A DNA stretch of 64,000 nt from positions 6,262,001 to 6,326,000 of the forward strand of contig NW_024704762.1 in the NCBI RefSeq assembly GCF_018977255.1. The letters run 5' to 3'. The stretch comes from Callorhinchus milii (taxonomy: Eukaryota). The notes beneath the pieces were generated by a model. The model was not told the origin of the DNA. It made no database searches and worked only from the letters and a program-made list of their open reading frames with translations. Shown one piece after another: positions 19,497 through 58,300 of this stretch (position 1 is the first letter of the stretch; each line of letters opens with the position of its first letter). A program made the position numbers and the translations under genes.

Positions 19497-22513
<3,017 letters not shown>

Positions 22514-24994: not shown

Positions 24995-27900
24995 CTACAA
25001 ATTATTTTTGTTCCATTTAACCAATCCATCTGCATACTGGAACTCCTGATTGTTCTCGTACTCCAACATGTCCAATGCCACCTCACAGCTCTCTTTCACC
25101 ACACGCTCTCCGTCCTGCAGATATTCTTTCAACACCTGAATGCACGGCTCCTTGGCAATTGATCCCAGAGCCTCTGCACATTCGTGTCGGACCATGGGAC
25201 TTTCATCCAGTTTTTTCAACGCTTCGATAAGTTGGGGAACGCTGGCTTCGTGTTGCATCTGACCGAAGACGTAGCCAATTTCGTGTCGGAACAAAGCACT
25301 GCCACACTGTAAGCCTGCGGAGAGGTAGGAAGCACAGAGCTGTCGATAACTTTGTTCAGAAACATTTGACAACTGTATGTGACTGGTCATCGACTGTATG
25401 GTACTCACAGGGTTTTAGAGTGAGTCAGTTATGTTATGTCATGTTATGTTATGGAACGATTATCGACAGAATGGTAACAGGCTGCTGGGCATTACTGACC
25501 CGTACTCTCCATATAAAAATAATGCTAAAAAATATTTTGCTTTAGCCACATCACACAGTGGTGGAAAATATAGAAACTTCCTGCATTAGCAACTGTTACA
25601 GGTGACGGCAGTAGGTATTTGAGCAAAAGGGCAGGAATTTGGTAAAGGGTTTCATTTCTTCGAATATTGCAGAAGTAGAGGGGAAAGTTACTCCCTTATA
25701 TATACATATTATAGTAATATAATAATCCTTGCATTTGATATAGTGCCTTATCACGTTCTTCAATATGTCTCCAAGTGCTCCACAGAATATACTGTAAAGT
25801 GAATTGACTGTACATTGTGTGGGCAGAGCAAAGCTCCCCTGATCAGCCAACAATGTGACAGCACCCTCTACTGTACCTATATGACATTTCCATTTCATTT
25901 CCAAATGATATTAGTCAATATTCGTATATCCATACAGAACTCATTTAAACTTGTGGCTAAATTAATCTCTCTGCATTGCTGGTCACAGAATATCTTCTGT
26001 TTCAAATGGGGTTTTCTCAAATCTTCTCCCTGAAGCTGTCTCCTCTTTCATGCCAAAATGTACTTTTTTTCCCCCTTCCCCAATATCGAATCTGATCTTA
26101 ACTACCGCCCCTGGATTTACTTTATTTTTCAAACCTTGGTGGTAGCTTTCATTCTGGAACTATTGTAGAAAATGTACAATATATAACTGGATGTGGAGAA
26201 AAAAAAAACACATAAAAATAGTTCATCAACTTCACTTTATGAAATGTCATTCCCCCCCCACCCCCACCCACCCCAATTTATTGGACTTGATATAATCACG
26301 AAACAAAAAAAAACTGACAGGACTTACCTTCGCCTAAAGCCAGAACTGCTTCTTCACTTCCAATATTTCGCAGAGCAAAGATAGCTCTGTATCGGTCAAA
26401 CAAAGGAACAGATTCGTCCAGGAGAATGTCCCTCAACTTTTTAATATCTTTTTCTTGGGCTGGGGGAGCAGGGTCCACAGAGTGATATGGGTTTCCAGTT
26501 TGCTCTTTGTTGTTCTGAAGCCATTCAATGCGCTTTACTGCCAGCTGGCAAGTCTCAGCGACCTGTAAATCTCAATACAAAAGCAGTGTTGAAGGGAGCG
26601 TCACATAAGATGACGAGATATCAGAAAGCTTTAAAATTGCATGAGCATTGATCTTCACTACAGAGCAGGAAACAATACAGTACCTTTGATTGTAAAACTC
26701 TTTCTCTCTGTCCCCCTAAAGCCTTATTAAAATATAATGCACTACTAGGAAATAGTGAGGACATTTTTTAATCCCTCACTCTCTATAGTCCTAAAAAGCG
26801 CTGACATTTTGGCTCTGATACCCAAGTTCCAAAAGTTGCTCCCTCGTGTCAACCAGGAGTCATTTGGGAATTATAGGTTTGAGATGCGTGCAGAGCTAAC
26901 GGGAGATCCGAATCCAAGTTCTTTGGGAAATTTGTAGCTTGGAATACCAGCCATTTGGCAACACTAGTTATCTCCAGAGGCAAGTTTGTCTCAGGATGTG
27001 GAAATGACTTTATAGACAACCCCATTGCCTGTATTATCTTACCTCTACTACTGGATCATGTGAGTATTGCTGCAATAATTCAAGGACTTCAGGTTTTCCT
27101 ATGGCTCCCAAAGCTTCACCTGAAATAAAAACACATTGGAGCTTCACAAAAAAAAACTAAAAGTCGAAACAATAAATTGTTGGGCCAGGACACCAGGAGA
27201 GAGAAACTCCCTTCTCGTTTCCAATACTACCTCTGGATCTTTAACGTCCACCTGGAAAGGCAGACAGAACAGGACCTTGGTTTACCGTCTCACCTGAACG
27301 GAGGCAACTTCGACAACGCAGCGCACTGTAGTGGAGCGAGCGTCAGTCAGCCTGGACTGTATGCGAGCTCAAAGTCTGGATGGAGAGCGCAACGTGAAAA
27401 GCTCGATGGTTTGAGCTGGTCAGACGCCAGCAGTACCCACCCCCCAACACCCAACGCACACTCTGGCGTCCCAGAGACTTGGTTCCTCAAGCGCTCCGGG
27501 TCGCTACCCTGCGCGAGGGTCGGGCTACGAATGAAAAGTCATCGTCGCTGCTGTCGTCGTCGTCGTCCCTGCCAACCTGCGCCTCACACTTGCCGGGTAG
27601 CAATTGGGTAAGAAGCAGGACATGTCCCTCCTGGGGTGTGAGAGAGAGAGAGAGAGAGTGGGAGCGTGCATTCCCAATCCAATACACGTTACTTGGGATT
27701 GGCAGGTGTCGGTGGTGGTGGGGGGGCAGTGGTTGTGTGGGCGTGAGGGGGTGGTGTGGGGGGAGGGGTGCAGGGAATTCTCAGGCTGGGGGTTTGGAGA
27801 CTCTCTGAGCCAGCAATAGGTGATGGGGTTTCCAGGTGGGTCAGACACCCCTCAATCAGTCAATCAATCAATCAATCCACCAATCAATCAATACACCAAT

Positions 27901-28114
27901 CAATCAATCAATCCACCAATCAATCAATACACCAATTCATCAATCAATACACCAATCAATCAATACACCCATTCATCAATCAATACACCAATCAATCAAT
28001 ACACCAATTCATCAATCAATCCACCAATCAATCAATACACCAATTCATCAATCAATACACCAATCAATCAATACACCAATTCATCAATCAATACACCAAT
28101 TAATCAATCAATCC

Positions 28115-28149
<35 letters not shown>

Positions 28150-28497
28150 CACCAATCAATCAATACACCAATCAATACACCAATCAACCAGTGACTGACC
28201 GGCTTCATGCCTGACCATGGGCTCCTGGCCGGGGTCCTGCAGCACGTGGCTGAGCACGGGCAGGGCCCGCGGGTCCTGGAGCTGCCCCAGACAGTAGGCC
28301 AACTCGTGCTTGAGCAGCGCCGACCCGTCCCCGAAGCCCCTGGAGATCCAGTCGATGGCCTCGGGCCCCCCGACGTTGCGTAGGGTGAAAAGCGCCCGGA
28401 AGCGCTCCCGCAGCGGCTTGGACGCGTCCAGCAGGGTCGTGCCGACCGACTCCAGCGCCTCGGCGCCCAACACGGCTCCCTGCGCGGCGGCCGGCAT
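24995..28497 (-). CDS. DOHH: Deoxyhypusine hydroxylase, 4 coding exons: 28200-28497, 27043-27119, 26328-26562, 24995-25314; 309 aa
   Basis: HEAT-repeat protein with four His-Glu iron-binding motifs (KHELAY, RHEAGEALG, RHEIGY, RHECAEALG). GT-AG boundaries; exon lengths 298+77+235+320=930 nt in frame. Confidence 0.97.
27175..27420 (-). mobile_element. DeuSINE-type fragment in DOHH intron 1
   Basis: ggccaggacaccaggagagagaaactccc...ggatctttaacgtccacctg core. Confidence 0.65.
27853..28190. repeat. (ATCA)n-derived compound microsatellite/minisatellite beside the DOHH exon 1 donor
   Basis: Repeating caatcaatcaatacac / caattcatcaatcaat units. Confidence 0.95.
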
Positions 28498-28613: not shown

Positions 28614-28753
28614 CACGCCCGTTGGGGGCGGGTTTTGTCGTACTGTGCGTAAAAATACGCCCATTGGGCGGGTTTTGTCGTACTGTGCGTAAAAATACGC
28701 CCAATTGGGCGGGTTTTGTTGTACGGTGCTTGAAAACACGCCCAATTGGGCGG
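28614..28753. repeat. About 3.4 copies of a 40-41 bp tandem repeat upstream of DOHH
   Basis: Unit cgcccaattgggcgggttttgtcgtactgtgcgtaaaaata, starting at 28616, 28658, 28698 and 28739. Confidence 0.9.
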
Positions 28754-29807: not shown

Positions 29808-32800
29808 CTAACTATCTTCCGGACCCATAAAGTAAGCAGCCAATACCTGTCGGATTTCTTCTGCTTTGCTATCAATCTGTCTGTCAGATTCTGTTTGGTT
29901 TGGCTGAGGAAATTCCTCCTGCCCAAGCACTCCCAGCCATTCATTATTAAAACCATCATTATGCTTTTCACAAACGTTGTGAAGAATGCAGCAGGCGGTG
30001 ATCATTGTCGGAATCAGTTCAAGGCTACAGTCATTCCTTTTGAGAAGACATTGCCAACGTGCTTTGAGTCTGCTAAAGGCATTGTCTATCACAGTGTGAG
30101 CCTGGTTTAACCTGCAGTTAAACACAACTTGATGCTGTGAGAGCTTTCCTGTTTCCAAATACGGCTTCAGTAACCATTCCTGCAGTGGGTATGAAGAGCT
30201 GCCTATCAACAGGTATCTCACGGGAGTTCCCCTGATGATTCTGGGGCAAGCGGGAAACAACTTTCCTTCAGTAGCCCTCATCCACACATCAGAATTCTTC
30301 AGAATTTTTGTGTCAAGAGTACTCCCAGAAAATCCAGCACAGACGTCCCAGAAATTACCAGTGCCATCAACCACACCTTGCAAGACAACCGAATGCCATC
30401 CCTTTTTGTTTAAATAATCTTTGTGATACTGTGGCGGGGCAATAATGGGTATATGGCAACTATCAATAGTACCAACACATTGGGGAATGTCCCACTTGAT
30501 GCCATACGTCCGATTCATAGTCTCAAATTCCTGATTGGTAGGCAGTCTTAGATACAGAGGCTTTAACAGAGACACAATGGCGTAGCAGACTTCTCTCACA
30601 CATTTACACACAGTTGATCGCCCTATTCCAAACAGATGACTTATTGTTCTATATTCAACATTCGTAGCTAGTCGCCAAAAGGCCACTGCAACTCGCTTTT
30701 CCAGTGGCAGTGCTGGTCGAAGGTGAGTGTTTCGGCGAGACACCATGGGTTTCAGCTTATTACACACGTGAAAAAATGTTTCCTTAGACATTCGGAAATT
30801 TTCCAACCAGTCGTTCGGCTGAAATTCCTTCATGACCACGCGTTCCCACCAGTCCGAACTTCTAGGCTTGCACCAAATTCTTGTTCGACAGTTACACCTA
30901 CTACCTCCACGGGCCATGACCATCTATAAACAATACGAAAAACATTTCGAAGTTCAGGAACTGGAGGCTGGTTTGATGGAGAACTTCACTTTAAGTACAC
31001 AGTGTAAGCTGGATGTTCACATTGATTTAATTACTCGATTTAAAGTTGCACAGAGTAAAATCAAATTAAGACATTTAACACTTGATTGTCAAAGCTTGCT
31101 TAATAGTACAATACTGCATTTCTAAACTCTCCGCTCTCACCTCCAAAATAGCCAGCTCTAAAAACCCAATTAATTTCCCCGCCATTCACCTCAAAGCACT
31201 CCTCTTGCTCCGTTATAATAATAAATTCGCCCACAAAATACACGGTCAATTTACTTCATAGTATGTCATGTGAAGCACTTTGAGACATCTCAAAGGTGAT
31301 AAGGCTATCAGTCACCCCTATGTTTTCAATGCCTGTGTTTAAAATACGTTCTGTAAAGTTTGTGTGTTCACTAAAAGCATAAGCCAGTGTGAGTGTAGTT
31401 AGTAATTACCGATTGCGCTCGGCGAAGCTCAAACATGCTGAAGTTTGGTAGAACTGGTCCATGCGTGTTATTAACTATATTGAGTTGTCCTTTAATTTTT
31501 TTTGTGTATTTAATGGTTTTGATACTTATGGTGCCATCAAGTCTGACTCAGGCATTGACTGCAACAATTTGGTGGGCAACTGACGGCCTATAATTGGCAT
31601 AAGTGGCGAGGAAGGCGCCCGGTTTCCTTATTGGGTCACTTAAACGATGATTTGGATTGGACCATAAGAAAGGCAACAATTACACCAAAAAATAATTGGT
31701 GCAATACAATTACCATTGAGGGCCTTAATTTGGGGTGGGGCTCAAAGCCCATAAAAGAACGAGCGCCAATGCTCTGGGTTGCTATTTTTCCTACCTGATT
31801 ACGGCGAAAAGGTACGTGTTCTGACTATTGATGAGTAGAGGTTGGTTCTTCGTGCACTTTACATTAACTTCATTACAAGTGGCTTCTAACCTGTTTAGTT
31901 TAAGTGTGATTAATGTTTGTTATCTTAAAGTTGCATTTATTGATACTTATTGTGCCGTTAAAGATTTAATACCGAGGGTTGTGCATTTCATCGAACCTAC
32001 AATAAAATTACGTTGAGTTTACTTAGCTGTGCTTTCTCAAACTTTCTGTATAAATCAAAGGAGGACACTCAACACAGGTTGAGTCTACATCACAGTCTGT
32101 TTAGAATAAAAGACTGATGATGGAATTGTCCCAATTTGCTTTAATTTAAATAGTACCTGTCGATGTGGAAGAACTCATTAGTCAACTTACACCTAGTTAT
32201 AGGGACTTGCATTCATTAGTGAGGATTGACCACAGAGGCCACGCAGTACACTCTGCAAGGGGAAGGAAGCCATATCATGGATCGACATATATGGGTAACC
32301 AGATAAGAACCATCTCAAGGCACTATCTCAAATATAAGGATTATTATTAGTATATTATGTAAAGCGCTTTGGGACGCCTCAACGACGTGATAAGGCGCTA
32401 CATCAAATGCAAGGATTACTATTACTATTGTAAGTAATAATCCTTCCATTCGAATCAATGCCTTTCACGTCTCAAAGCACTTCATGTGGCTCGCGGTGAA
32501 GTGCGGCAGCCGCGTGTTAACGCAGGCGAACGCAGCGGCCAAAGTTCACGCACGGTGGGCGACATCCCGCAAACAACCGCGGAGCGAACAGCCTATGTTA
32601 TTTGAAATACGACAAGAGATTTTTGTACCCGGGACACCGACCGAACGGTGATGAGCTGGTTTGGTTTGGGGTTTGGGGTGGGGGGGGGGGGAGAAGGCAA
32701 GGGAACTCCTTCAATAATAATCCTTGCATTTGATGTTGCGCCTTATCAGGTCTTCAAGGCGTCTCAAAGCGCTTCACGGGACTGACCTACCGGTACGTTG

Positions 32801-33294
32801 ACGCGGACTATATTTTGAGGGCAAAAGCAGACAAATGTCTGCAACAGGATAGGGAAAAGCTGGAAATACAGTACAAGGATGGTTTGGGGAAGGTTCCCCC
32901 CCCAACCCCCTCTGTCTTAGGAAGGTCATTCATCTCCTGGCTTTAGAGTTAGTGTCGAGTCGGGGTCGGAGGGAGGAAGGCAGAAGAAGAGAAAGAGGAG
33001 TCAATGAAGGAGAGGGCAGGAACAGTTCAGCCCTTTGTGCGTGACACGAAAAAAAAGGAAAGGGGGGGGGGGAGAGAATTAAAAAAAAGACCTTCCCCCT
33101 CCTCCAAAAAAAAAAATTCTTTTGTTTCCTACCAATATCATCTTCCTCTGTCGCTGCTGGAAGTACTGCCTCATCCTCAGCCGCCTCTGAGCGTCGTTCC
33201 TCCTCTCGAGGTTGGCGCCCTCCACCTCGGCCCGGCGCTTCATCAGCAAGTAGAGGAACAAGAAGAGCAGAGGCAACGCCGCCTCGTCCGCCAT
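29808..33294 (-). CDS. PIF/Harbinger transposase-derived (HARBI1-like, DDE_Tnp_4-type) protein, 2 exons: 33133-33294 and 29808-30923; 425 aa
   Basis: 371-aa ORF with Harbinger motifs ENFRMSKETF, HTH region (YRTISHLFGIGRSTV), GTIDSCHIPI, Y.NKKGWHSVVLQGVVD, YPLQEWLLKPY, AF.RLKARW.CL, ACCILHNVCE. It is preceded directly by an acceptor (tttatag|ATG at 30923) that joins in phase 0 to a 54-codon exon ending TTG|gtagga. Minus-strand AATAAA at 29671-29676. Confidence 0.9.
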
Positions 33295-37030: not shown

Positions 37031-40000
37031 ATGGATCAAGACTACAAACGGCGCCTGCTACGACAAATTAATGTTCAGAATGAAAACACAGTCCCTTGTG
37101 TAAGTGCTGTGCACAACAGTGTTCCATGAACAGCCATGAAGTGAATGACCAATTTTATCTTAAATAGTCCTCGCATTTGATGTAGCGCTTTTCACGTCTT
37201 CTAGACGTCTCAAAGCGCTTCACAGAATATACTGTAGAGTGAATTTACTATATCTTGGGGATTCTAGGCCAGAATTCCAGGAGAAGCTAGCTACCTTTTC
37301 TTTTGAGATAATGCAGGATTGTAAAAGTCCACCTGAATAGCTAGGCAGGACCTATCTCATCTGAAGCATGCCACCTCCCAATATGACCTTGCATTGGAGT
37401 ATCAGAGTTCAAAGTGGCCGTTTGAGTCAGAAGCGAGAGTGCTATCAAATGAGTCAAGCTGGCACTTGATTGAATGTGTAAAGTTTACAAATGTGTTCGC
37501 TGTTCGGATACTAAACCTAAGAGGAGACTCCTCCTGAAGCTCGGTAGTGATTTAATAGTGATGTGGGACTGTGTTTTTATCCAGACTCGGATCAATTTTT
37601 TTTATATACGAATGGTCATGGGGAAAATTTCAATAAACCAAATTATTGGTATTTCTAAATTCTATTAACAATTAATAAACCAAAACATTCAATTATCTAC
37701 TATTCAATTAACCAGATTTCACCATGATTTGATTTACGATGACACCCATTGGCTATTTGTTGGTAAATGCATCTTTGGGAATCCAAACGTACTGCTCTGA
37801 AAAACTAGGAAATTCAAATTGGGGAACAAAGCATACCAAGTTGATCCTGAATTGCACTGGACCGAGTGATTTGCTTACCACCATTCTTTTTCTTTGTTTC
37901 TTTAGATAACTGAAGTTAGGAGAACATTGACTCCTACAAATTCACCGGTATCATCACCAAGTAAAAGCGGAGATAGGTTTATACCTTCAAGAGCTGCTGC
38001 AAATTGGAGTATAAACTTCCATAGAATAAATGTACGTTTTCCATGCAATCATTGGTTTGCAAATTCCTTGGAATTTTTCTGAAGGTGATTGTACATGAAG
38101 TCAAAGATGAAATGAACATTGCTTTCATAGATCCTTGTTCTTCAATATAACCCTATTGATGAATTATAGTAATAATAAGTAGTAATAATTATTGTTGAAC
38201 AGTATTGCTGCGCATCTTTTTCTACTGTATTCAAATATTGTGGCTAAAATTGAAACAACCAACAAAGGATTAATGCTCAACAATATAAAAACATGATCTG
38301 CTATCAATATGCTATTCTAAGAAGCTTGCTGTGGGTGTAAAGTGTAGTTTTGTCTCATTTTAGGAAAATGAAAAGTCACCGAGTCAAAATCGAAAGGCAA
38401 AGGATGCTACTTCTGACAATGGCAAAGGTTCAGTACCCACTGACTTCTTATTCACTACTTGTCATACTAGTGCTTATTGTCCAGGTTTTCATATGAATAA
38501 TAGCCACTTGGGCAAAGTACCAGAGGCAGGTTGGTGCTCGTGGAATGATATCCTTGTAGAAGGAAATGCCTGAGAAAGAGGATACATATCCCCACAATTG
38601 CCCCACAATCCCCACAATCCCTGTGCCACTACCTTGTCCTCTACAGAATTTAAAAACAATGTTTTATATTAATGCTGCCTAAACTCTCAATAAAAAGGTG
38701 TTATATCTTTAGCATTCCTGATGAAGTGTTCTTTTTCTAAATCCGTTTCCTCTCGGCTTGTTTGGCAGATGGACTTGCTTATTCAGCTTTGCTTAAGAAT
38801 GAGCTGCTGGGGGCAGGAATTGAAAAAGTTCAGGACCCTCAGACTGAAGACAGACGCTTACAGCCATCAACGCCTGAAAAGAAAAGTTTATTTAAGGTAA
38901 TAGCAGCTGGACTTAAACAGAACAGCTGAATTGGTTTTATATCGTGCTGGGGAAACACAGAACCTGTTAGGTTCTTTGTCAAACAAAACAAAATACTGCA
39001 GATGCTGAAATCTGAAACAAAAACAGAGAGAGCTGGGAAAACTCGTCAGGTTAGGCAGCATTTATGGAGAAAGGAAAGTGAGATGAAGGGTCCAGTTCTG
39101 ATGAAGAGTCATGGACCCAAAACATTGACTCACTTTCTTTTCACCATAGATGCTGCCTGAACTGCTGAGTTTTCCCAGCTCTCTCTGTTTTTGTTTCAGA
39201 TTCTTTATCTAGATGTTCTTTGTTTCTTGTAATGAATGAATTGAGGATTATATTTACAAAACCAGTAAATGACTTTAAAAGTATTCCAATACCGTAACCT
39301 TGATTTGATATTAATTGATGCATGTTTAAACTCTGGGTCAGAACGTTTCTGAATTTGGGTTAATTGACTTAGATTTCCATTTTATGAAAGGCTTTGTCAT
39401 CAGATACTGGGTTAATTGCAAAATTAGTGTAGTGGAAATTATTTACACCCAAGGACTACTGAATGTTACACAAAATGTATCACGTCAACCACAAAAAAGT
39501 ACTTTTCTTAGCAATTACCGAACTTTCCTTTTATTCTTATCGGATGGATAGGTACTTAGTCATTTGTAGTTTGCTTAATTTTGATGTTTTACTAACCCCT
39601 TTCTCTTTTTGCTAACAAAATGTTTTGAGATTACTGAAATGTTTTCACTGCAGAATGTGCATGCTTTATATTAATTTCTTTAATCAGTTTAAAATGTCTT
39701 CTATTCACAGTATTCACTCAGCACTAAGCGTGCAAGTCCCGATGATGGAAATGATATCTCACCGTACTCATTATCTCCAGTTAGTAATAAAAGGTAATCT
39801 TGAACTGGGATTTAAATACATGCAGTATAGTCTTTGCGGTGTTGACGATTGTTCCCAGCGCGTTTGGAACCGATATCAGCAGTGCTTGAACTAAGATTTA
39901 GTGGTGTCATGAAAGTAGTACAGAAGTGTAAGCATCAGTGGTGAGACTTTGTTGGTACTGCTGTGTTACCTTTGCATAACAGCAGGGTTGGTACACTGAG

Positions 40001-43000
40001 CCAGGCACAAAAAAGTAGGTCACGACCTGTATTGTGAAACTTGTACACCAGTAAGAGTTGTGTGCCTCTGATGTTAACTACACAAATATATTCTGTCATA
40101 GCACTTGGCAGTAGAATTACTATTCAGAACCATAATTATGGTTTCCTTTGGTTGTAGAGTCCAATTGGTAAAAATTAGAATGCCCTGTGTTATTGGTTAT
40201 AATCGCTACCAGGGTTAGCCACAAAGATATGTATTTCTTAGAGAAAGTAGCTTGTGAAACCTACCTATGCTTTGCCGTCTTAAACCATCTTATGCTATTT
40301 TGAACGTGACTTTAGGAAAAATCACAAACCAAATAAAATGCAATGATTCCTTTTATAAAAATGCGGTTAACATCTCAGGTCCAAAGAAATGGATCTTTAA
40401 TTTGATCTTTTCTAAGTCTTTTATTTTTGAACTTCATGGTTCTCAAATTGAGGAATATGTGCGTAGAGGAGAACGTTTCTCTTAAAATGCTTTCCATGCA
40501 ATATTAGCAACGGTTATTATTCGACTTGTACGCAGAAAAAAAACTCTGCGTGCAGTTCACCACCACAGTGCTACCAAGCCTCAGAAAAGCTTCCCTATTA
40601 CTCTGCAATAGTGAGTTCTCTTTTCTTGCAACTTGTGGCCTTTCAGGTGTAGAATAACGGACAGTTTTGTACTGTGGTCCACAAGCTCACTAGGAAGTGG
40701 GTTGATTCTGCTAAAAACTGACTTCACATCACATCTTTACAGCCAGAAAATATTGCGAACACTTTAATTCTGTTAGCCTTCACCAAGGTTCATACATTTA
40801 GATTTCAGAAGTTAAAAAGTTTAGTGTTGCAACAAATTATCACCTATACTTCATTATTTTCATCATTCTGTGCTTTTTAAAGGCTGTTAATGTTATCTTA
40901 AGCAATATAATAATGCAATTTCTATATTTAAACTATTTCACTAAGTAACTTTGTTTGAAAGATTAAGTTTGCAATAAACCATAGAAACTATATTAAAGTT
41001 GCAGAGGGAATTATTTGAAACTAAGAGAGATGTTATTGAAATAATTGTTCTAGGATCATTATTAGGGTTAAAGGCGCTATACAAATGTAAAGTTGTTGTT
41101 GTATTAATTTAACTTATTTCTTGTACAGTCAAAAATTATTGCGATCACCGAGAAAACCCACTCGAAAAATATCAAAGATTCCATTTAAAGTTCTCGACGC
41201 GCCAGAATTGCAGGATGATTTTTACTTGAATCTGGTTGACTGGTCTTCCTTAAATGTATTGAGTGTTGGACTTGGTACCTGTGTATACCTCTGGAGCGCT
41301 TGTACTAGCCAGGTAAGATTCAACAGAAACATCTGCAGTCTATATAAATATTAGGTCTGTTACAATATGCAGCTTAATTGTTTTGGTTTGCCCACAAAAC
41401 ACAATCGCTCCACTTTACAGTATATCCTGTGAATCGCTTTGAGATGTCTTCCTGAAATGTAGCAAATGTAAGGATTATTATTTATTATTGTAAATTGAAG
41501 TTATGAGGTGTAGTGATAGTGTGTTTTTAAGAGAGCCAGTAAACTTTTTTTTTAGAAAATGCAATACACGTGTTTTATTCAAATTGATATTCAATTTTTT
41601 TTCTTTTGTAAGTTGTGTAAATTACCCAAAATGAAAATAGCAGTTTTTACAATAAATATTTATCTCCTAATTAAATATAATTATTTTCATGTATGCCTTG
41701 TTTTCATTTTTTCTGCCTCACAGGTGACTCGACTGTGTGATCTATCTATAGATGGAGATTCTGTTACATCGGTCGGCTGGTCAGAAAGGGTAAATATCAT
41801 TTTTGGCATAAATAAAACTCAGCATAATCATCTGCTTACGATTTTTGTTTTGCAAATCACTTTTTAATGTGGGGAAGTTTGCATTGATCAGGATACAGTT
41901 CCTTTTACTCATCAAACATTTTAAACAATTATGTTCATAATACACTCACGGTAAATTCAACTATGTTAGTATGTCATGCTGTTTTGTGTATTGCTGCATT
42001 ATTCATAACTGACATAAATTGGTAATGATATCAGTGAAAGACAAGACTCATTACTTGAAGTAAGACTAGGTATGTTTACTCCCATTGGAAGATGTTCTGT
42101 TTTGAAGAGTGAAGGTAGCTAGTATCATTTAAATTACTGATGCTTTGGGTTATTTGTTTAACTTGAATCTAGGGAAATTTAGTAGCTGTTGGAACACACA
42201 AAGGGTATGTTCAGATCTGGGATGCAGCTGCAGGGAAGAAACTGTCTACACTCGAGGGTCACTCAGCAAGAGTGGGTAAGTTTCTCATCATCACAAGCTT
42301 AATTTTCCTAGTTCTGGATCGTAGGAAACGTCCTTGGGACATTCTCCTGAGGTGAAAGGCGCTATACAAATATAATTTGTTGTTGTTTGTGTAGATTCTA
42401 GGATTGTAATTCAACCAAGAGCACTCACTGACTATTCCAACTGTATTGTTGAAATGTATTCATCAGAGAAAATTGTAATTAAATGGTGACTATTACAATG
42501 GATGTTGAAACAAAAACAACTCTAATTTCTCATTGTTTATTGGACTTTGCAGTACACTACCCATTTCAGTGTGATATTGGGACAAAAAGAATGCTCAGTG
42601 TCATTCTACAAGCTCCTTAGATGAGACAAATTTATGGGCGTGTTTTGTTTTATTTAAAAAAAACTAAATGCACCATGGGTTATATTGAAAATCAATTTCT
42701 TATGGGTTCAGTAATTGAGAAATACTAATATGTGGTCCATAGGTTTTTCCATTGAAGTTTTGGTAGTTATATTTTCATGCTTTTTCAGAACAGTTAAATA
42801 TGTATAGTTTCAAGAATGCAGGCATTTGACATGGATGGATTATTCCCTTAGGTGCTCTTGCATGGAACGCTGATCAGTTATCGTCAGGAAGTCGAGACCG
42901 ACTTATTCTCCAGCGAGATATCCGAACCCCACCACTACAATCTGAGCGGCGACTTCAAGGTCACAGGCAAGAGGTCTGTGGCTTGAAATGGTCCACAGAC

Positions 43001-45949
43001 CATCAGCTTCTCGCTTCTGGTGGAAATGACAACAAGGTGAGATTCATAGGAAATAAAGAATCCGGGTAAAATTAAGCCAAACACTGACATCAGTTTTGAT
43101 GTTCACATCATCCGAAGTGGGAGACCGGCACTCCATTATTTAGAATCACATGAACATCAGCCGCCTTTGTTGATCTCGTCCTGGTATAATTAAAAATTAG
43201 AACCCATTAAAATGGGTGCGGCAGCTCCATCAGCGCCTCAAAGTCCTGACTGGTAACAACAACTTGTATTTATACAGCGCCCATCATGCAGGGTGGCGTG
43301 AAACTCTGAAAACTCCCTTTTTTTTAATCCCTCGCGCCTTGCCCCTTCCTTCCCCATTTTCGGGCCATGCGAACGGTCACCTCCCCTCCCCCCAGCTCGG
43401 AGTCATGCTCCGCCAATGTCAAGCGAGCTAGGATGCTACTCTGCGTGAGGGGAGCTGTATAAATGCAAGCTGTTGTTGTTGGCGTCCCGGAACACTCACC
43501 CTGGGAAGCCGAAGCAGCTGGCTAACTTGCTCGGACGTGACTTCATGCGACTGCACAGTGAATGGGAATGCACTGACTGGCTGTCACTCAGTTTATAGCA
43601 GTGGTTGGGATTTTATGGACCCCTAAATAACATTATTACTGGGTTCTACTATAATATATATTTAATCGCTGACAGTTTGGGAAATTGGTTTCTTTGAGAG
43701 TTTGTTTTTGTCTTGGGTTGGGTTTTTGTTTGTAAAACTGGTGTTAATTCAAAATGGGCTGTATTTTATTATGAAATTGACTCAAGTGTGATTTTTCTTT
43801 TTTTCCAAGCTTCTGGTGTGGAACAACTCTAGTTCAGGTCCAGTGCAACAGTACACAGAACACCTCGCAGCTGTGAAAGCCATTGCCTGGTCTCCCCATC
43901 AACATGGGCTTCTTGCGTCGGGAGGTGGAACTGCTGACCGCTGCATCCGTTTCTGGAACACTCTCACCTCTCAGCCATTACAGTGTATAGATACAGGTTC
44001 ACAAGTGTGTAACCTTGCCTGGTCCAAACATGCAAACGAGCTGGTGAGTCCAAAGCAGTTTTTCCTTGGTGCATTTATGAGCTGAATTGCACAGCTCTAC
44101 AATCTGACTGTCACCTTGAGGATATAGTTTTTTCCCTGTGTTCGCCTCACTTACCTATCTTTGCTTCACAACCATTTGAAGCAATCTAGAACTCTGCAGG
44201 GGCTTAAATTGCTTGGACCACATTAAACTTTTGTACTACATAGTGGATCTTGGACCTACATTTTTTTGATAGTCATGAAATAGATCATGTTCTTCTCTGC
44301 AGTAATGAAAATAATGTGGCAATAGTTGCATTGTTATCATTACTGGCAGAGCAGCATGTAATAATAGTGGCAGTAGTTGCATTGAAGGCAACATTAATGC
44401 TTACCAACACAAATGATGTCTTAACCATGTTATCTTTGTACTTGTAGGTGAGCACTCATGGATATTCACAAAATCAGATCCTGGTGTGGAAATATCCATC
44501 ACTAACACAAGTAGCCAAATTGACTGGACATTCCTATAGAGTTTTATACTTGGTGAGTACCGCATGCTTTAATTTTCCTTCTGATTTTTCTCTCCTGAAG
44601 ACTGCCTGCTTGAGGTGGTCTATGGTGTTTTGAGCTAAGACGTATAGGTACACCTCTCACCATGAAGTGGCATCAGTCTTGTCCTCCCTGGACATCCACA
44701 TTAGTGTCAATTGGCAGCATGGTAATGGCCCTAGTATAGAAGTTGGGCTGCTCTGCTCAATGAATAGTAGGGCTTGTGCATCTCAAGCAATCAGTTGGTG
44801 ACTGAGAATGGCTGAAGCATAGGTGGGTGGGGTAAATGTCTGGCATTTGCTATCTGCAGGGTAATATGATGATGTAAGATGTGTGGAGAACATCGGCGGG
44901 GAAGGAAACCGATTTTATAATATAATTTTTTTTAATAAAAGTACTACCTTGTTAGTGTATGGTTATAAATTCTCTTGAATCCTCTTTTTGACCCAAAGGC
45001 CATGTCACCAGATGGAGAAGCTATAGTGACTGGAGCTGGCGATGAAACACTTCGATTCTGGAATGTGTTTAGTAAAACCCGTTCAACTAAGGTATGTGGT
45101 GCTCTAGGTAATGAGCTTCACTGTACGAAAAGTTGGGTTTCAACTGAAGAATGAATTTATCCCGTATTTTTAAACAAATGTGATTATACCATATTGCTTC
45201 ACAAGAGTTGCCTGTCTATTTTAATTATCCTAAAACTGGTAGGCTTTTCACTGAGTGCAAATACATGTATAACATGTTTGCACACAGTTGTCCACATTGA
45301 TTCCTGAACCCATCAGATTGTTTTAGAAGACAAGCTGAAGGGAGGTGCTTATTTTTAATATTTCAAGTGAAATCATCGAGTTAATAGTGCAGCAGAAACA
45401 AAAGCAGGTTATGTGATTAACTTCTTGGTTAGCTAAAATGTGATTTTGACTGGAAGAGGAAATTAAGTGGGCGGTAGGGATGTAGAAACTTGTTTTATTC
45501 TCGTTGCTACTAAATTAGATAAAGGCAGTGACGTCAAAATTGTAAAGTTAGGTGCTTCTAAGTTTTCAAATTGCCCAAACCTGTCTGATACTTGCTGACG
45601 GTAACAATATACTGACTTGATAGTTATTGCACAGTCAATTCACTTTATAATATATTCTGTGACGAGCTTTGAGACGTCTTGAAGAGGTGACAAGACACTA
45701 TATGAAATGCAAGGATTATTATTAAATGAAAATTGATATTCCTACCAATTTCATCCGAAATTCCTGCATCAGCTGATGTGCAAATTGTCATATTTTGGAA
45801 GGCACAAGCAGGACATATGCTAATAGTGCAGTAGTAAGAGTGAACAATTAGTTAAAGAGGAATTTTCAGAGTTCAAGAGATGCATTTACTTTTGCATTAA
45901 ATTACAGGAATCCATATCTGTGCTGAATCTCTTCACAAGGATTCGATAA
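37031..45949 (+). CDS. FZR1: Fizzy-related protein 1 (Cdh1, APC/C coactivator), 13 coding exons: 37031-37099, 37906-38031, 38364-38427, 38769-38896, 39711-39793, 41129-41312, 41724-41789, 42173-42275, 42852-43036, 43810-44043, 44448-44552, 44999-45091, 45908-45949; 493 aa
   Basis: N-terminus [14 protein letters not shown]-box [29 protein letters not shown]40 repeats, C-terminal IR tail (LFTRIR*). All introns GT-AG; total 1482 nt in frame. Confidence 0.98.
38983..39202. mobile_element. Inverted-repeat hairpin element, probably derived from Penelope-like terminal repeats, in an FZR1 intron
   Basis: Arms 39009-39082 and 39129-39202; the outer 36 bp are a perfect inverted repeat. The spacer contains CTGATGA...GACCCAAAAC. 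Confidence 0.7.
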
Positions 45950-54700: not shown

Positions 54701-55302
54701 CATGTTAGATCATCTGCCTTCGTGTTGCTTGACTTTTTAATGATCTGTATTATCGGAAACCACCTGGGAGACGATAAGCCAAATTGGAAATCCCCAGCAG
54801 CTCATTTATAAAGTGCAAAACCTTCCGTTTGTTTCCTGATTCTGACTTGACTACGAAAATGAAACTAGCTTTGGCTTACTTTCAAGAAACCCTGCCATCA
54901 AAATATTACAGCTATGGTACTACAAAATAAATCGTTGCTATCAAAAAGGTCAAATCTTCCCAATGAGGGTCGACTACTGCAGGTCAAACATTTTTGTAGC
55001 CTTTCTCAAAAGCCAAAGCAAATCTCTTTGTTAAGCTGAACGGCAGAAATTGTGCCTTTGAGGTGTCTCTCTGATTGGGCTGGATGAAATTTTGCAAATA
55101 GAGAAAAATTAAGTATTTTTGACTGTTTGATTTTTTTTCCCCACATTTTCTACAGATCTCGAAGCTTACTGAGCGTGGGAACCTTGCAGTGCAAACGATA
55201 TTCAAGGTGTAAAGACAAATCAAAGTGTGTCTCGGGTGCATCTGGCTTGTTGCGAAGACTTAATTTTTCCTGCTTCTCATGGACAGTCACATAGGTTCAA
55301 AT

Positions 55303-58300
55303 ATGGCAGTGGCCTTGAAGCAGGTTTTCAACAAAGACAAGACATTTCGTCCCAAGCGCAAATTTGAGCAAGGCACCCAGAGGTTTGAGTTGCACAAGAA
55401 GGCACAGGCATCGCTGAACGCAGGTCTAGATTTGAAACTAGCAGTGCAACTCCCTTCAAATGAGGATCTCAATGACTGGGTAGCGGTCCATGTGGTGGAC
55501 TTCTTCAACCGCATCAATCTGATCTACGGGACTGTGTCTGAATTCTGCACTGCCTCCACCTGCCCTATAATGTCAGGAGGACCCAAGTACGAATACAGAT
55601 GGCAAGACGAAAGCAAGTACAGAAAACCCACCGCACTATCTGCTCCAAAGTACATGAGTCTCCTTATGGATTGGATTGAAACCCAAGTGAACAATGAAAA
55701 CATATTCCCAACTAATGTTGGTGAGTCGTAAAACCTTCTTTGAACATCTTCTTGCACTTTGTTGTTCAAATTGTTGTTTTCTTTGTAACAAAACCTCTCG
55801 ATAAAGCAATTATTGTAGCAGAGAGTTTATGAATGACTGCATTACTGCCTTGGGGCTGACCCTGTTATAAAGTGCCTGGTATAGCATTGCACTATAATGG
55901 TATGGCCTACACTTGGATTCTATTAAATTACTATACTTATCTAGCCAACTTGAAAGTGATTCCACTCAAATGTATTTGGGGGGTGGGAAAGGTTAAAGAG
56001 TCTGGATAGGAATGTAAACATACTAATTTAGAATTGCTGCAATAATAGTTAACCAGAAGGTAGTACTAAATTTCATTGGTATTTGTTTCTTTATAATAGT
56101 TTCAATATTGATCAGTTTGGGCGTAAGCCGTCTCGGCTTCATGTAAATAAAAGAAAATCACCTGTCTTACATGAATGGTAGCATTATCTATTGTTCTGAT
56201 CTGAAGTAACTTGGCCCATTAATTTTTTTATATATCATTTCTCTCAGGTACTCCTTTTCCAAAGAACTTCCAGCAAGTTTGCAAGAAGATCCTCTCCCGG
56301 CTTTTCCGTGTTTTTGTCCACGTCTACATCCACCACTTCGACCAAATTGGCAATATGGGAGCAGAGGCACACGTTAATACCTGTTATAAGCATTTTTACT
56401 ATTTTGTGACGGGATTCAACTTGATAGACAACAAAGAGTTAGAACCACTGGTATGTTACAGCAATATTTACTCGAACATTTAATTGATATAATTTAGTTT
56501 ATCCATAGAACGATAGTTTTTTAAATGTATGTGGAATAAGTACAACACTGCTGTGGCAATTGGCTGCCGCGTTTCGCCCACAAATATACGGTCAATTCAC
56601 TTTACAGTCTATTCTGTGAAGCACTTTGAGACGGCGAGAAGAGGTGAAAAAGCACTATATCAAATGCAAGGATTATTATTTTTATTATTAATTTTGTAAA
56701 GAGGTTGAAACCGTTGCAGTTCTGCCCCTCGGCTTAATTTAGGTTACAGGAAATGTGATGGAGAAACATTCAAGGCAGTTGAACTTCTTCTAGCATCGGT
56801 ATTGTACCCTACCTAGTGTTATAAAGCTCCAATGCTCTCTCTAAGTGCTATCTTACTTTGGAAGTGCACAATCTGTAACTATACTATTGGGTACTTTTGA
56901 CTCAATTGAATTGGACAAAATCTGATAAATTCTCGTTCATACCAATCTGTTAAACTAACATTTAGTGGGTAAATGTTTGCAGTGCAGTCGTTTGAGAATT
57001 ACATGCAGCGAAGATTCTAGTTGCACTAAAATTCTAGTAGCTGAACAACATATGGAATTTGAAGACTATTGTGGGCTTGGCGAAGAGGACGGTGTAGTTG
57101 GAAATCTCAGTCCTTTAGTACTCAATACTGTTTGTACCCATACAAATATATTTTTCTTATGGCTACCTTCCATTGTAAGCATTTAACAGTGAACTTTCTG
57201 AGGGATATTCAATGAGCTTCTCATCACAAGTATTCCTTGCAGCCTTTTAAGGCTTAGCTTATTTTGGGTTAATGTCCAATATATTCTCCTGAAGCCAGAT
57301 GAAGAATACTGATTTGTTCAGACATTTTTGTTTTGTTTTTGAGATACTAGATTTTGGCGTCACTTTATGACATAACCTCTTTATCTTGCCTCTATCTGTC
57401 TGTCTAACCTAACCTTAATTCTCTTATCTCATGTCAGCTTTTCTAAATCGTATATGTACCCGTCTGTTTTCTTTCTTGCAGTCTGATTCTGTCTTTCTGG
57501 CGATAGCTGCATAGGTCTTTGATCGTATTATCCGTTGCTCTGTTCTGCTCCTCTTATCTGGTGACCTCTCTTCCTCCGTGGTTTATGACAGTCTTACTCT
57601 CTGAAGCACTGTACATATTCTTGTGATGATCCTGCTATGTTCTGAGGTATATATTTTCATTATAATTATAATAAGAAGAATCCTTGCACTTATACAACAA
57701 CAACTTGCATTTATATAGCGCCCCTCATGCAGGGTAGCATCCCAGAGTAGCACCTTTCGCGTCATGAGGACATTTCAAAGCACTTCGCAGGATTTACAGT
57801 CAAATTTGCAATTTGTCTATCAAACCGTTGAGTGGAACAAAGTTTGTTGCTAAACTCTGGATAGGTTGAAATCTTTTGTGTGGTGAGTTTTCTCAGTCCT
57901 TAGTTGGGCCACACGGCAGCATACTGCCCATCTTGGCAAACCAGCACTAGAAACAATATTAGCATTCCACCGATCTTACCTTCTTTCAATGAATCATGCA
58001 GTGCTATTGACAGGATCAAAACAGGAACCTGTGAGGTGCTGGAGGTGAAACTATATCCCAGCATGCAATTACAAACTATCAAAAGAGCAAAGTACAGGGT
58101 TGAAGGATGTATGTCTGAATGTGCTGGGTTCAAATATACAGTGAATTGAATTGCTAATTCATACGCTGAATTGCTGCTTACCTCTTATTGGGTTAAAATG
58201 AGTATCAAAGCTCTGTCTCTGAATATCCCTGTTGCATATGATCGCATTAACCACAAAGCAATATCATTCAGGAAACAAAAAGCATCCCATACTGTTCTTA

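Follow-up and report, generated by a model that had tools for sequence, protein, structure and literature searches.

A domesticated Harbinger transposase gene beside DOHH in jawed vertebrates, with a catalytic triad altered in some lineages

The locus analysed here raises a simple question: is a transposase-like reading frame in the genome of Callorhinchus milii, with an active site that departs from the usual one, a mobile element, a working nuclease of the host, or a host protein that has given up cutting? The window, by which we mean the whole stretch of 64,000 nucleotides (contig NW_024704762.1, positions 6,262,001 to 6,326,000), was the subject of an earlier note made from its letters alone. 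That note described a 371-amino-acid open reading frame related to PIF/Harbinger transposases, in which two of four presumed metal-binding residues were kept and two replaced, and proposed that cutting had been lost or altered while the fold was retained, as expected for a scaffold or chromatin role.

The 371-residue frame is exon 2 only. A stop codon stands immediately 5' of its methionine and relatives are about 425 residues long; tblastn with these relatives located a first exon of 54 codons upstream, followed directly by GT, with AG before position 30923. The splice joint 30923/33133 was found in three of three RNA-like sequencing runs from two studies and is missing from the DNA-like run, the RNA label of the runs being a guess and not a matter of record. 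Splicing exon 1 to the reading frame therefore gives a full protein of 425 residues, in which the four residues become D208, D258, S296 and D334. We keep the earlier numbering, which is sound within exon 2; only the view of this frame as the whole protein has to be given up, because exon 1 had been missed. The two exons are identical letter for letter to XP_007896889.1 of Callorhinchus milii (P0123), a protein that carries automatic names alone, ALP1-like or putative nuclease HARBI1.

All four codons read as first described: GAT for D154, GAC for D204 (30312-30314), AGC for S242 where an acidic residue would be expected, and GAC for D280 in place of the final Glu (Table 1). Both altered codons, for one of which (AGC) an assembly error had been named as a possible source, are covered by contigs of four of four independent runs with no other letter, and therefore neither is such an error; Ser at 242 also recurs in all 29 cartilaginous-fish proteins. 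At position 30508 one run has a different letter, which replaces Thr by Met at exon 2 codon 139; this is a plain polymorphism as far as seen.

Table 1. Features of the Harbinger-derived gene and its neighbours in the window (residue numbers are those of exon 2 unless stated)
Feature	Position	Strand	Evidence or remark
Coding exon 1, 54 codons, long N-terminal helix in model	33133..33294	-	tblastn, GT donor, spliced joint
Intron, 2209 bases, GT..AG, phase 0, contains high-copy repeat fragments	30924..33132	-	
Coding exon 2, stop included	29808..30923	-	matches XP_007896889.1
Helix-turn-helix region, best-conserved part of the protein	30588..30713	-	Pfam HTH_Tnp_4 E 2.5e-05, under curated cut-off
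DDE_Tnp_4 (RNase H-like) domain	29976..30467	-	Pfam E 6.4e-28, profile 1-158
First triad residue, Asp kept, D154 (D208 in full protein)	30462..30464	-	next conserved Gly is Ser
His-Asp motif, His to Leu (L203), Asp kept (D204)	30312..30317	-	
Second triad residue, Asp to Ser, S242 (S296 in full protein)	30198..30200	-	AGC
Third triad residue, Glu to Asp, D280 (D334 in full protein)	30084..30086	-	GAC
DOHH, downstream neighbour, same strand, synteny marker	24995..28497	-	tblastn with pigeon DOHH, 68-71% over four exons; HEAT_PBS
CDC20/Fizzy-family gene exons, upstream neighbour, head-to-head	37906..45946	+	Pfam WD40_CDC20-Fz on three exons

We asked whether the gene behaves as a transposon copy. 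It belongs to the PIF/Harbinger transposase family: in the profile comparison that had been suggested as a check, residues 153-316 of the frame span the whole of DDE_Tnp_4, with a score of 97.8 bits against a curated cut-off of 24.8. A search of the genome returned one full match, the next being 27% identical, and the remaining DDE_Tnp_4 matches comprise one further intact frame and nine fragments that are short or interrupted by stops. Intronic repeat fragments and simple repeats aside, no terminal inverted repeats of 25-50 bp bracket the gene among the 25 longest pairs per search, and none of 15 genome matches to PF13837 and PF13873, counts that are lower bounds, places a Myb/SANT gene on the contig of the window. 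Against an autonomous Harbinger element, then, the locus shows D-S-D instead of D-D-E, no terminal repeat pair, no linked Myb frame that we could find, one copy and a conserved position; with a domesticated transposase it shares the single copy, the open frame, the spliced transcript, the orthologous position and a host-like gene tree. Over exon 2 the protein is 79-88% identical to shark and ray proteins (73% for one partial sequence), which points the same way, toward a dN/dS that would lie well below 1.

Another explanation is that the locus holds a Harbinger copy that is recent or still mobile, a transposon in decay, or an error of assembly. This would fit with the many decayed Harbinger-like fragments in this genome and with the database names of relatives, which are called putative nuclease HARBI1 or ALP1-like. 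Single copy, open frame, splicing and identical codons in independent runs speak against it, and the conserved locus next to DOHH and the host-like tree, described below, refute it; we regard it as extremely improbable.

The best matches to the protein come as one or two proteins per species, from sharks, rays, coelacanth, sturgeons, gar, bowfin, teleosts, caecilians, salamanders, turtles, gharial and birds. In our reference tree, a finished careful tree under LG+G4 (the larger trees were made with a quick method), these orthologues form one clade with support of 100/100 and a stem of 0.35, and their branching order is like that of the species. Two teleost copies appear in the quick tree, as the teleost genome duplication predicts, and the nearest relatives outside the clade are multi-copy teleost proteins with D-D-E intact. 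An index-free profile search added fast-evolving frog members: its best 150 matches held seven new members of the clade, namely three from frogs, one teleost-like and three fragments closest to medaka. No mammal occurs among the named matches listed (the best 120 and the best 150, one list extending to plant proteins at 33-37% identity), and no lepidosaur or lungfish among the matches listed. The gene may thus be absent from mammals and lepidosaurs by loss; one search missed many known teleost members, and absence from such lists falls short of proving it.

The position of the gene is shared as well. We compared by eye the scaffold lengths recorded for the protein and for DOHH; the comparison covers lobe-finned vertebrates (coelacanth, a caecilian, turtles, gharial and birds), and the DOHH matches listed did not extend to ray-finned fishes. 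The lengths agree in 16 of the 18 species present in both lists, including scaffolds of 13,003, 57,700 and 153,754 bases, the misses being Lagopus leucura (two contigs of less than 9 kb) and Caretta. Moreover, a tinamou gene model is a fusion of the Harbinger-derived protein, DOHH and the next gene, with order and strand as in the window. We take the Fizzy-family neighbour to be FZR1, and in the human genome DOHH and FZR1 are presumably direct neighbours. We conclude that this domesticated Harbinger transposase is a real, old and widely shared host gene. The best reading of its origin is from a PIF/Harbinger source in the ancestor of jawed vertebrates, a step included in the joint figure given with the mechanism below.

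Some candidates were tried and rejected. Squamate proteins from Euleptes and Varanus were considered as fast-evolving orthologues, and a simple model rejected their placement with turtle, crocodilian and bird (p-AU 2e-53) as well as with the whole clade (p-AU 0.01); in the LG+G4 tree they group instead with other amphibian proteins. A hagfish protein was similarly rejected as an orthologue (p-AU 0.002). DOHH and GNA11 proteins inside the search clusters are unrelated sequences, and the GNA11 found there was not counted as evidence.

To follow the active site across the family we used an alignment in which 318 of 475 proteins spanned residues 200-345, 227 of them in the orthologue clade; its rows include isoforms and repeat assemblies as separate entries, and sampling is uneven, heavy in birds and teleosts. 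We take the triad to be residues 154, 242 and 280, an assignment that draws on these alignments. In intact-triad relatives outside the clade, these columns are near-invariant D/D/E, which bears out three of the four catalytic-metal residues first proposed; D204, the fourth, is in our reading not a triad member.

Among the 29 cartilaginous-fish sequences, 27 have the triad D-S-D, one D-S-H and one D-S-E; the horn shark has His at 280. D154 and D204 are present in all 29, and residue 280 is acidic in 28. Elsewhere the picture is mixed. D-D-E is kept in coelacanth, gar, bowfin and 12 of 12 sturgeons, and in all 57 sequences from turtles, crocodilians and birds. Caecilians have G-D-E, and three of four salamanders D-D-E. 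In teleosts, the otocephalan first copy is intact in none of 24 sequences and the euteleost copy in none of 61, the second teleost copy in 12 of 32. The 227 clade sequences of the alignment hold 88 intact, 137 broken and 2 gapped triads, and require at least nine changes of triad state from an intact root; the frog sequences are broken as well, with G-N-E and A-D-E. These states, taken lineage by lineage, lead us to conclude that domestication most likely took in an intact triad, which has since been worn away several times over by different changes. When every clade is given the same weight, the triad columns rank 216, 165 and 229 of 350 in conservation, and the flanking residues H211, G295, Y299, R343, W344, H369 and N370 are 97-100% kept.

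The proposal that cutting was lost or altered therefore has to be divided. For cartilaginous fishes it stands: because the change from Asp to Ser is found in 29 of 29 sequences, normal cutting has very probably been lost in this group. A single triad mutation lowers Ping excision about 150-fold (PMC2836001). Conservation of the substitutions across orthologues likewise holds for S242 within cartilaginous fishes. Loss of cutting as a trait of the whole gene is not supported, since 88 sequences keep D-D-E. The constancy of S242 is itself unremarkable, because 124 of 181 columns are invariant in cartilaginous fishes.

The intact sequences also count against any reading in which the protein never cuts, and they define the main rival explanation. 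The gene may have begun as a working host nuclease that still cuts or nicks nucleic acid wherever D-D-E is present (birds, turtles, crocodilians, coelacanth, gar and sturgeons), those with broken triads keeping only a second, non-catalytic role. The triad is invariant in the turtles, crocodilians and birds and in the sturgeons counted above. In the first three groups invariance is shared by only 6 of the 15 other acidic columns, so that some selection on the triad there is possible; in the plant protein ALP1 the triad is likewise intact in early-branching lineages (PMC4671723). Invariance is common in these three groups, however (110 of 181 columns), so that three invariant triad residues are weak evidence. 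Four residues typical of the intact-triad outgroup are also missing from the D-D-E lineages: the His-Asp motif His, the Gly next to the first Asp, the FGRLK Gly and the RWR Arg. Turtles, crocodilians and birds have Asn in place of D204. This pattern extends through the orthologues: nearly all clade members, including those with D-D-E, are without the His of the His-Asp motif (about 2% retain it, clade-weighted, versus at least 95% of the intact-triad outgroup) and the Arg of RWR, and most are without the FGRLK Gly. These three residues are present in at least 95% of 43 intact-triad outgroup sequences, and are commoner than in the clade, if less strict, in 77 more distant ones. We consider retained nuclease activity unlikely.

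An alternative confined to cartilaginous fishes is that their site is remodelled and not dead, with D154, D204 and D280 binding a metal or a nucleic-acid end in an altered chemistry. The retention of D154 and D204 throughout the group and of an acidic residue at 280 in all but one sequence could reflect such an altered metal site, and in that respect tells against a non-cutting protein. The His of the horn shark at 280 argues otherwise, and constancy is expected where so many columns are invariant; this possibility seems to us quite improbable, well below that of a retained nuclease.

Loss of the triad has not meant loss of the fold, as had been anticipated. In the structure model (mean pLDDT 87.2) exon 1 forms a long N-terminal helix, the helix-turn-helix region is helical and the RNase H-like core is intact. 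Its top five structural matches are DDE transposases with modest Z scores of 9.3 to 6.8 (rmsd 4.6-5.7, 209-247 residues aligned), among them the piggyBac and Tn5 transposases at 9.3 and 8.7. Foldseek gave nothing at E 0.001, its best match being piggyBac at 2.7e-03; a sequence search of solved structures gave no match at E 1, and the ESM Atlas returned DDE_Tnp_4 clusters only, with no useful taxa. In the helix-turn-helix region, residues 119-180 are 98% identical in horn shark, 90% in coelacanth and 83% in zebrafish; frogs, salamanders and the second teleost copy show drift of the helix-turn-helix, which counts against the reading proposed below.

These observations are consistent with a model in which the spliced, single-copy, PIF/Harbinger-derived gene of jawed vertebrates encodes a non-cutting adaptor, which is predicted to have a Myb/SANT DNA-binding protein as partner and would influence chromatin or transcription. 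We give this reading a probability of roughly 0.6. A transposase with its triad intact would have been domesticated in the jawed-vertebrate ancestor, and the His-Asp motif His, the Gly following the first Asp and the RWR Arg would have changed on the stem branch. Catalysis being no longer needed, the triad residues would then have eroded lineage by lineage, and the helix-turn-helix and the core would have been held under constraint. By analogy with the pairs HARBI1-NAIF1 and ALP1-ALP2, the protein would bind a Myb/SANT DNA-binding partner, and the complex would be targeted, again by analogy, to chromatin or transcription. Harbinger transposases rely on a Myb-like partner, contacted through their N-terminal end, to enter the nucleus and to be targeted to DNA, and HARBI1 binds NAIF1 as these transposases bind their Myb partners (PMC9392472). 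The need for such a partner, the effect of triad mutation in Ping and the precedent of ALP1 together lead to the non-cutting, Myb/SANT-paired adaptor. Three unlinked single Myb/SANT exons of the Harbinger type (L014, L015 and L016, at G000:C17, C9 and C519) are candidate partners. The chromatin step, taken by itself, has in our judgement slightly less than an even chance; for the scaffold or chromatin role proposed in the earlier note, the argument is the analogy with plant ALP1. This Polycomb analogy need not carry over, because human HARBI1 fails to rescue Arabidopsis alp1 (PMC9129072).

Arabidopsis ALP1 and rice PANDA resemble the gene: these too are single-copy Harbinger domesticates whose triad is intact in certain lineages and broken elsewhere, with a single intron close to the 5' end and a retained helix-turn-helix (PMC4671723, PMC9129072). 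ALP1 has DGA for DDE and joins PRC2 as an accessory, two triad residues having been lost in angiosperms and the triad being intact in basal land plants (PMC4671723). In our alignment the plant homologues have Gly at the second triad column, which agrees with that DGA triad. They differ in being of independent plant origin, about 35% identical and outside the clade, and in that PRC2 binding has been demonstrated for ALP1 and PANDA (PMC4671723, PMC9129072), whereas for the DOHH-linked gene it is a matter of analogy. The ALP1-like combination of a broken triad and a retained fold holds in cartilaginous fishes, caecilians, frogs and most teleosts, and the broken triad is not found in birds, turtles, crocodilians, coelacanth, gar, bowfin or sturgeons.

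Other relatives stand further away. HARBI1 is shorter than the DOHH-linked gene and lies at another locus; we recognised it nowhere in the Callorhinchus milii genome by exon-wise profile matches, which are lower bounds. The papers covered name HARBI1 as the vertebrate gene derived from a Harbinger transposase, present in mammals too (PMC9392472, PMC9710019, PMC5753468, PMC3424704). It is kept from fish to mammals, while the gene described here adjoins DOHH and has no mammal among the named matches listed; the two are apparently distinct. Active Harbinger transposons of fish are of the same transposase family (PMC9179366), but the DOHH-linked gene is single copy at a fixed locus, with no terminal repeats or linked Myb frame found. 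Insect DPLG genes offer a parallel for repeated domestication of PIF/Harbinger transposases, often with a Myb/MADF partner (PMC9710019); they are separate insect events, and the Myb partner of the DOHH-linked gene is predicted.

The literature covered, including the text of Frith 2022 and its one supplement, yielded no description of this gene, which is apparently undescribed; subscription journals, theses, Repbase notes and other supplements lay outside that scope. The 2022 screen for domesticates started from human proteins (PMC9392472), and a gene lost in mammals would therefore be missed. The frog members, a tinamou model that preserves gene order and the counts of triad states are new here. 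The gene is kept from chimaera to birds, and its zebrafish and galliform orthologues make knockout and tagging feasible. Its natural series of intact and broken triads would allow a direct test of the need for catalysis in domesticated transposases, and also of whether animals repeated the path by which plant ALP1 entered chromatin regulation. In its furthest form, which we put forward tentatively and as somewhat less probable than the chromatin step alone, the gene would be a second, undescribed chromatin regulator of jawed vertebrates derived from a Harbinger transposase. It would be an animal counterpart of ALP1 that had been domesticated together with a Myb/SANT partner of its own and had disappeared from mammals and lepidosaurs, and one of several non-mammalian domesticates missed by human-centred screens.

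Several further Harbinger-derived sequences came to light. A second intact, single-exon Harbinger-like frame in the same genome (L002:1375-2592, G000:C19) encodes 405 residues, is 27% identical to the DOHH-linked protein and has a dead-looking triad of E, G and G; lying amid many decayed relatives, it is probably another domesticate. P0425, P0427, P0484, P0498 and P0507, from a gecko, the Komodo dragon, a caecilian and two frogs, form a separate clade with 100/100 support and broken triads, likely another tetrapod Harbinger domesticate. Further conserved proteins of this kind are P0104, P0383 and P0619, and P0088 and P0230; one occurs in sturgeons, paddlefish and bowfin, the triad being D-D-E in sturgeon but T-D-L in bowfin, and the other is common to two hagfishes and reads D-G-E in Myxine.

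The window itself holds some minor features. Just upstream of DOHH, at 28630-28750, lie about three near-copies of a 40-45-base unit rich in CCGCCC and CCAAT-like words, which have the look of a DOHH promoter. An exon of a small membrane-protein gene at 22160-22402, without a Pfam match and also found after DOHH in tinamou, belongs to what we take to be SMIM44. At 20817-21764 a 315-residue frame is the 3' part of an ordinary LINE reverse transcriptase (RVT_1 E 4.6e-06), and a Mob1/phocein-family exon occupies 55279-55731.
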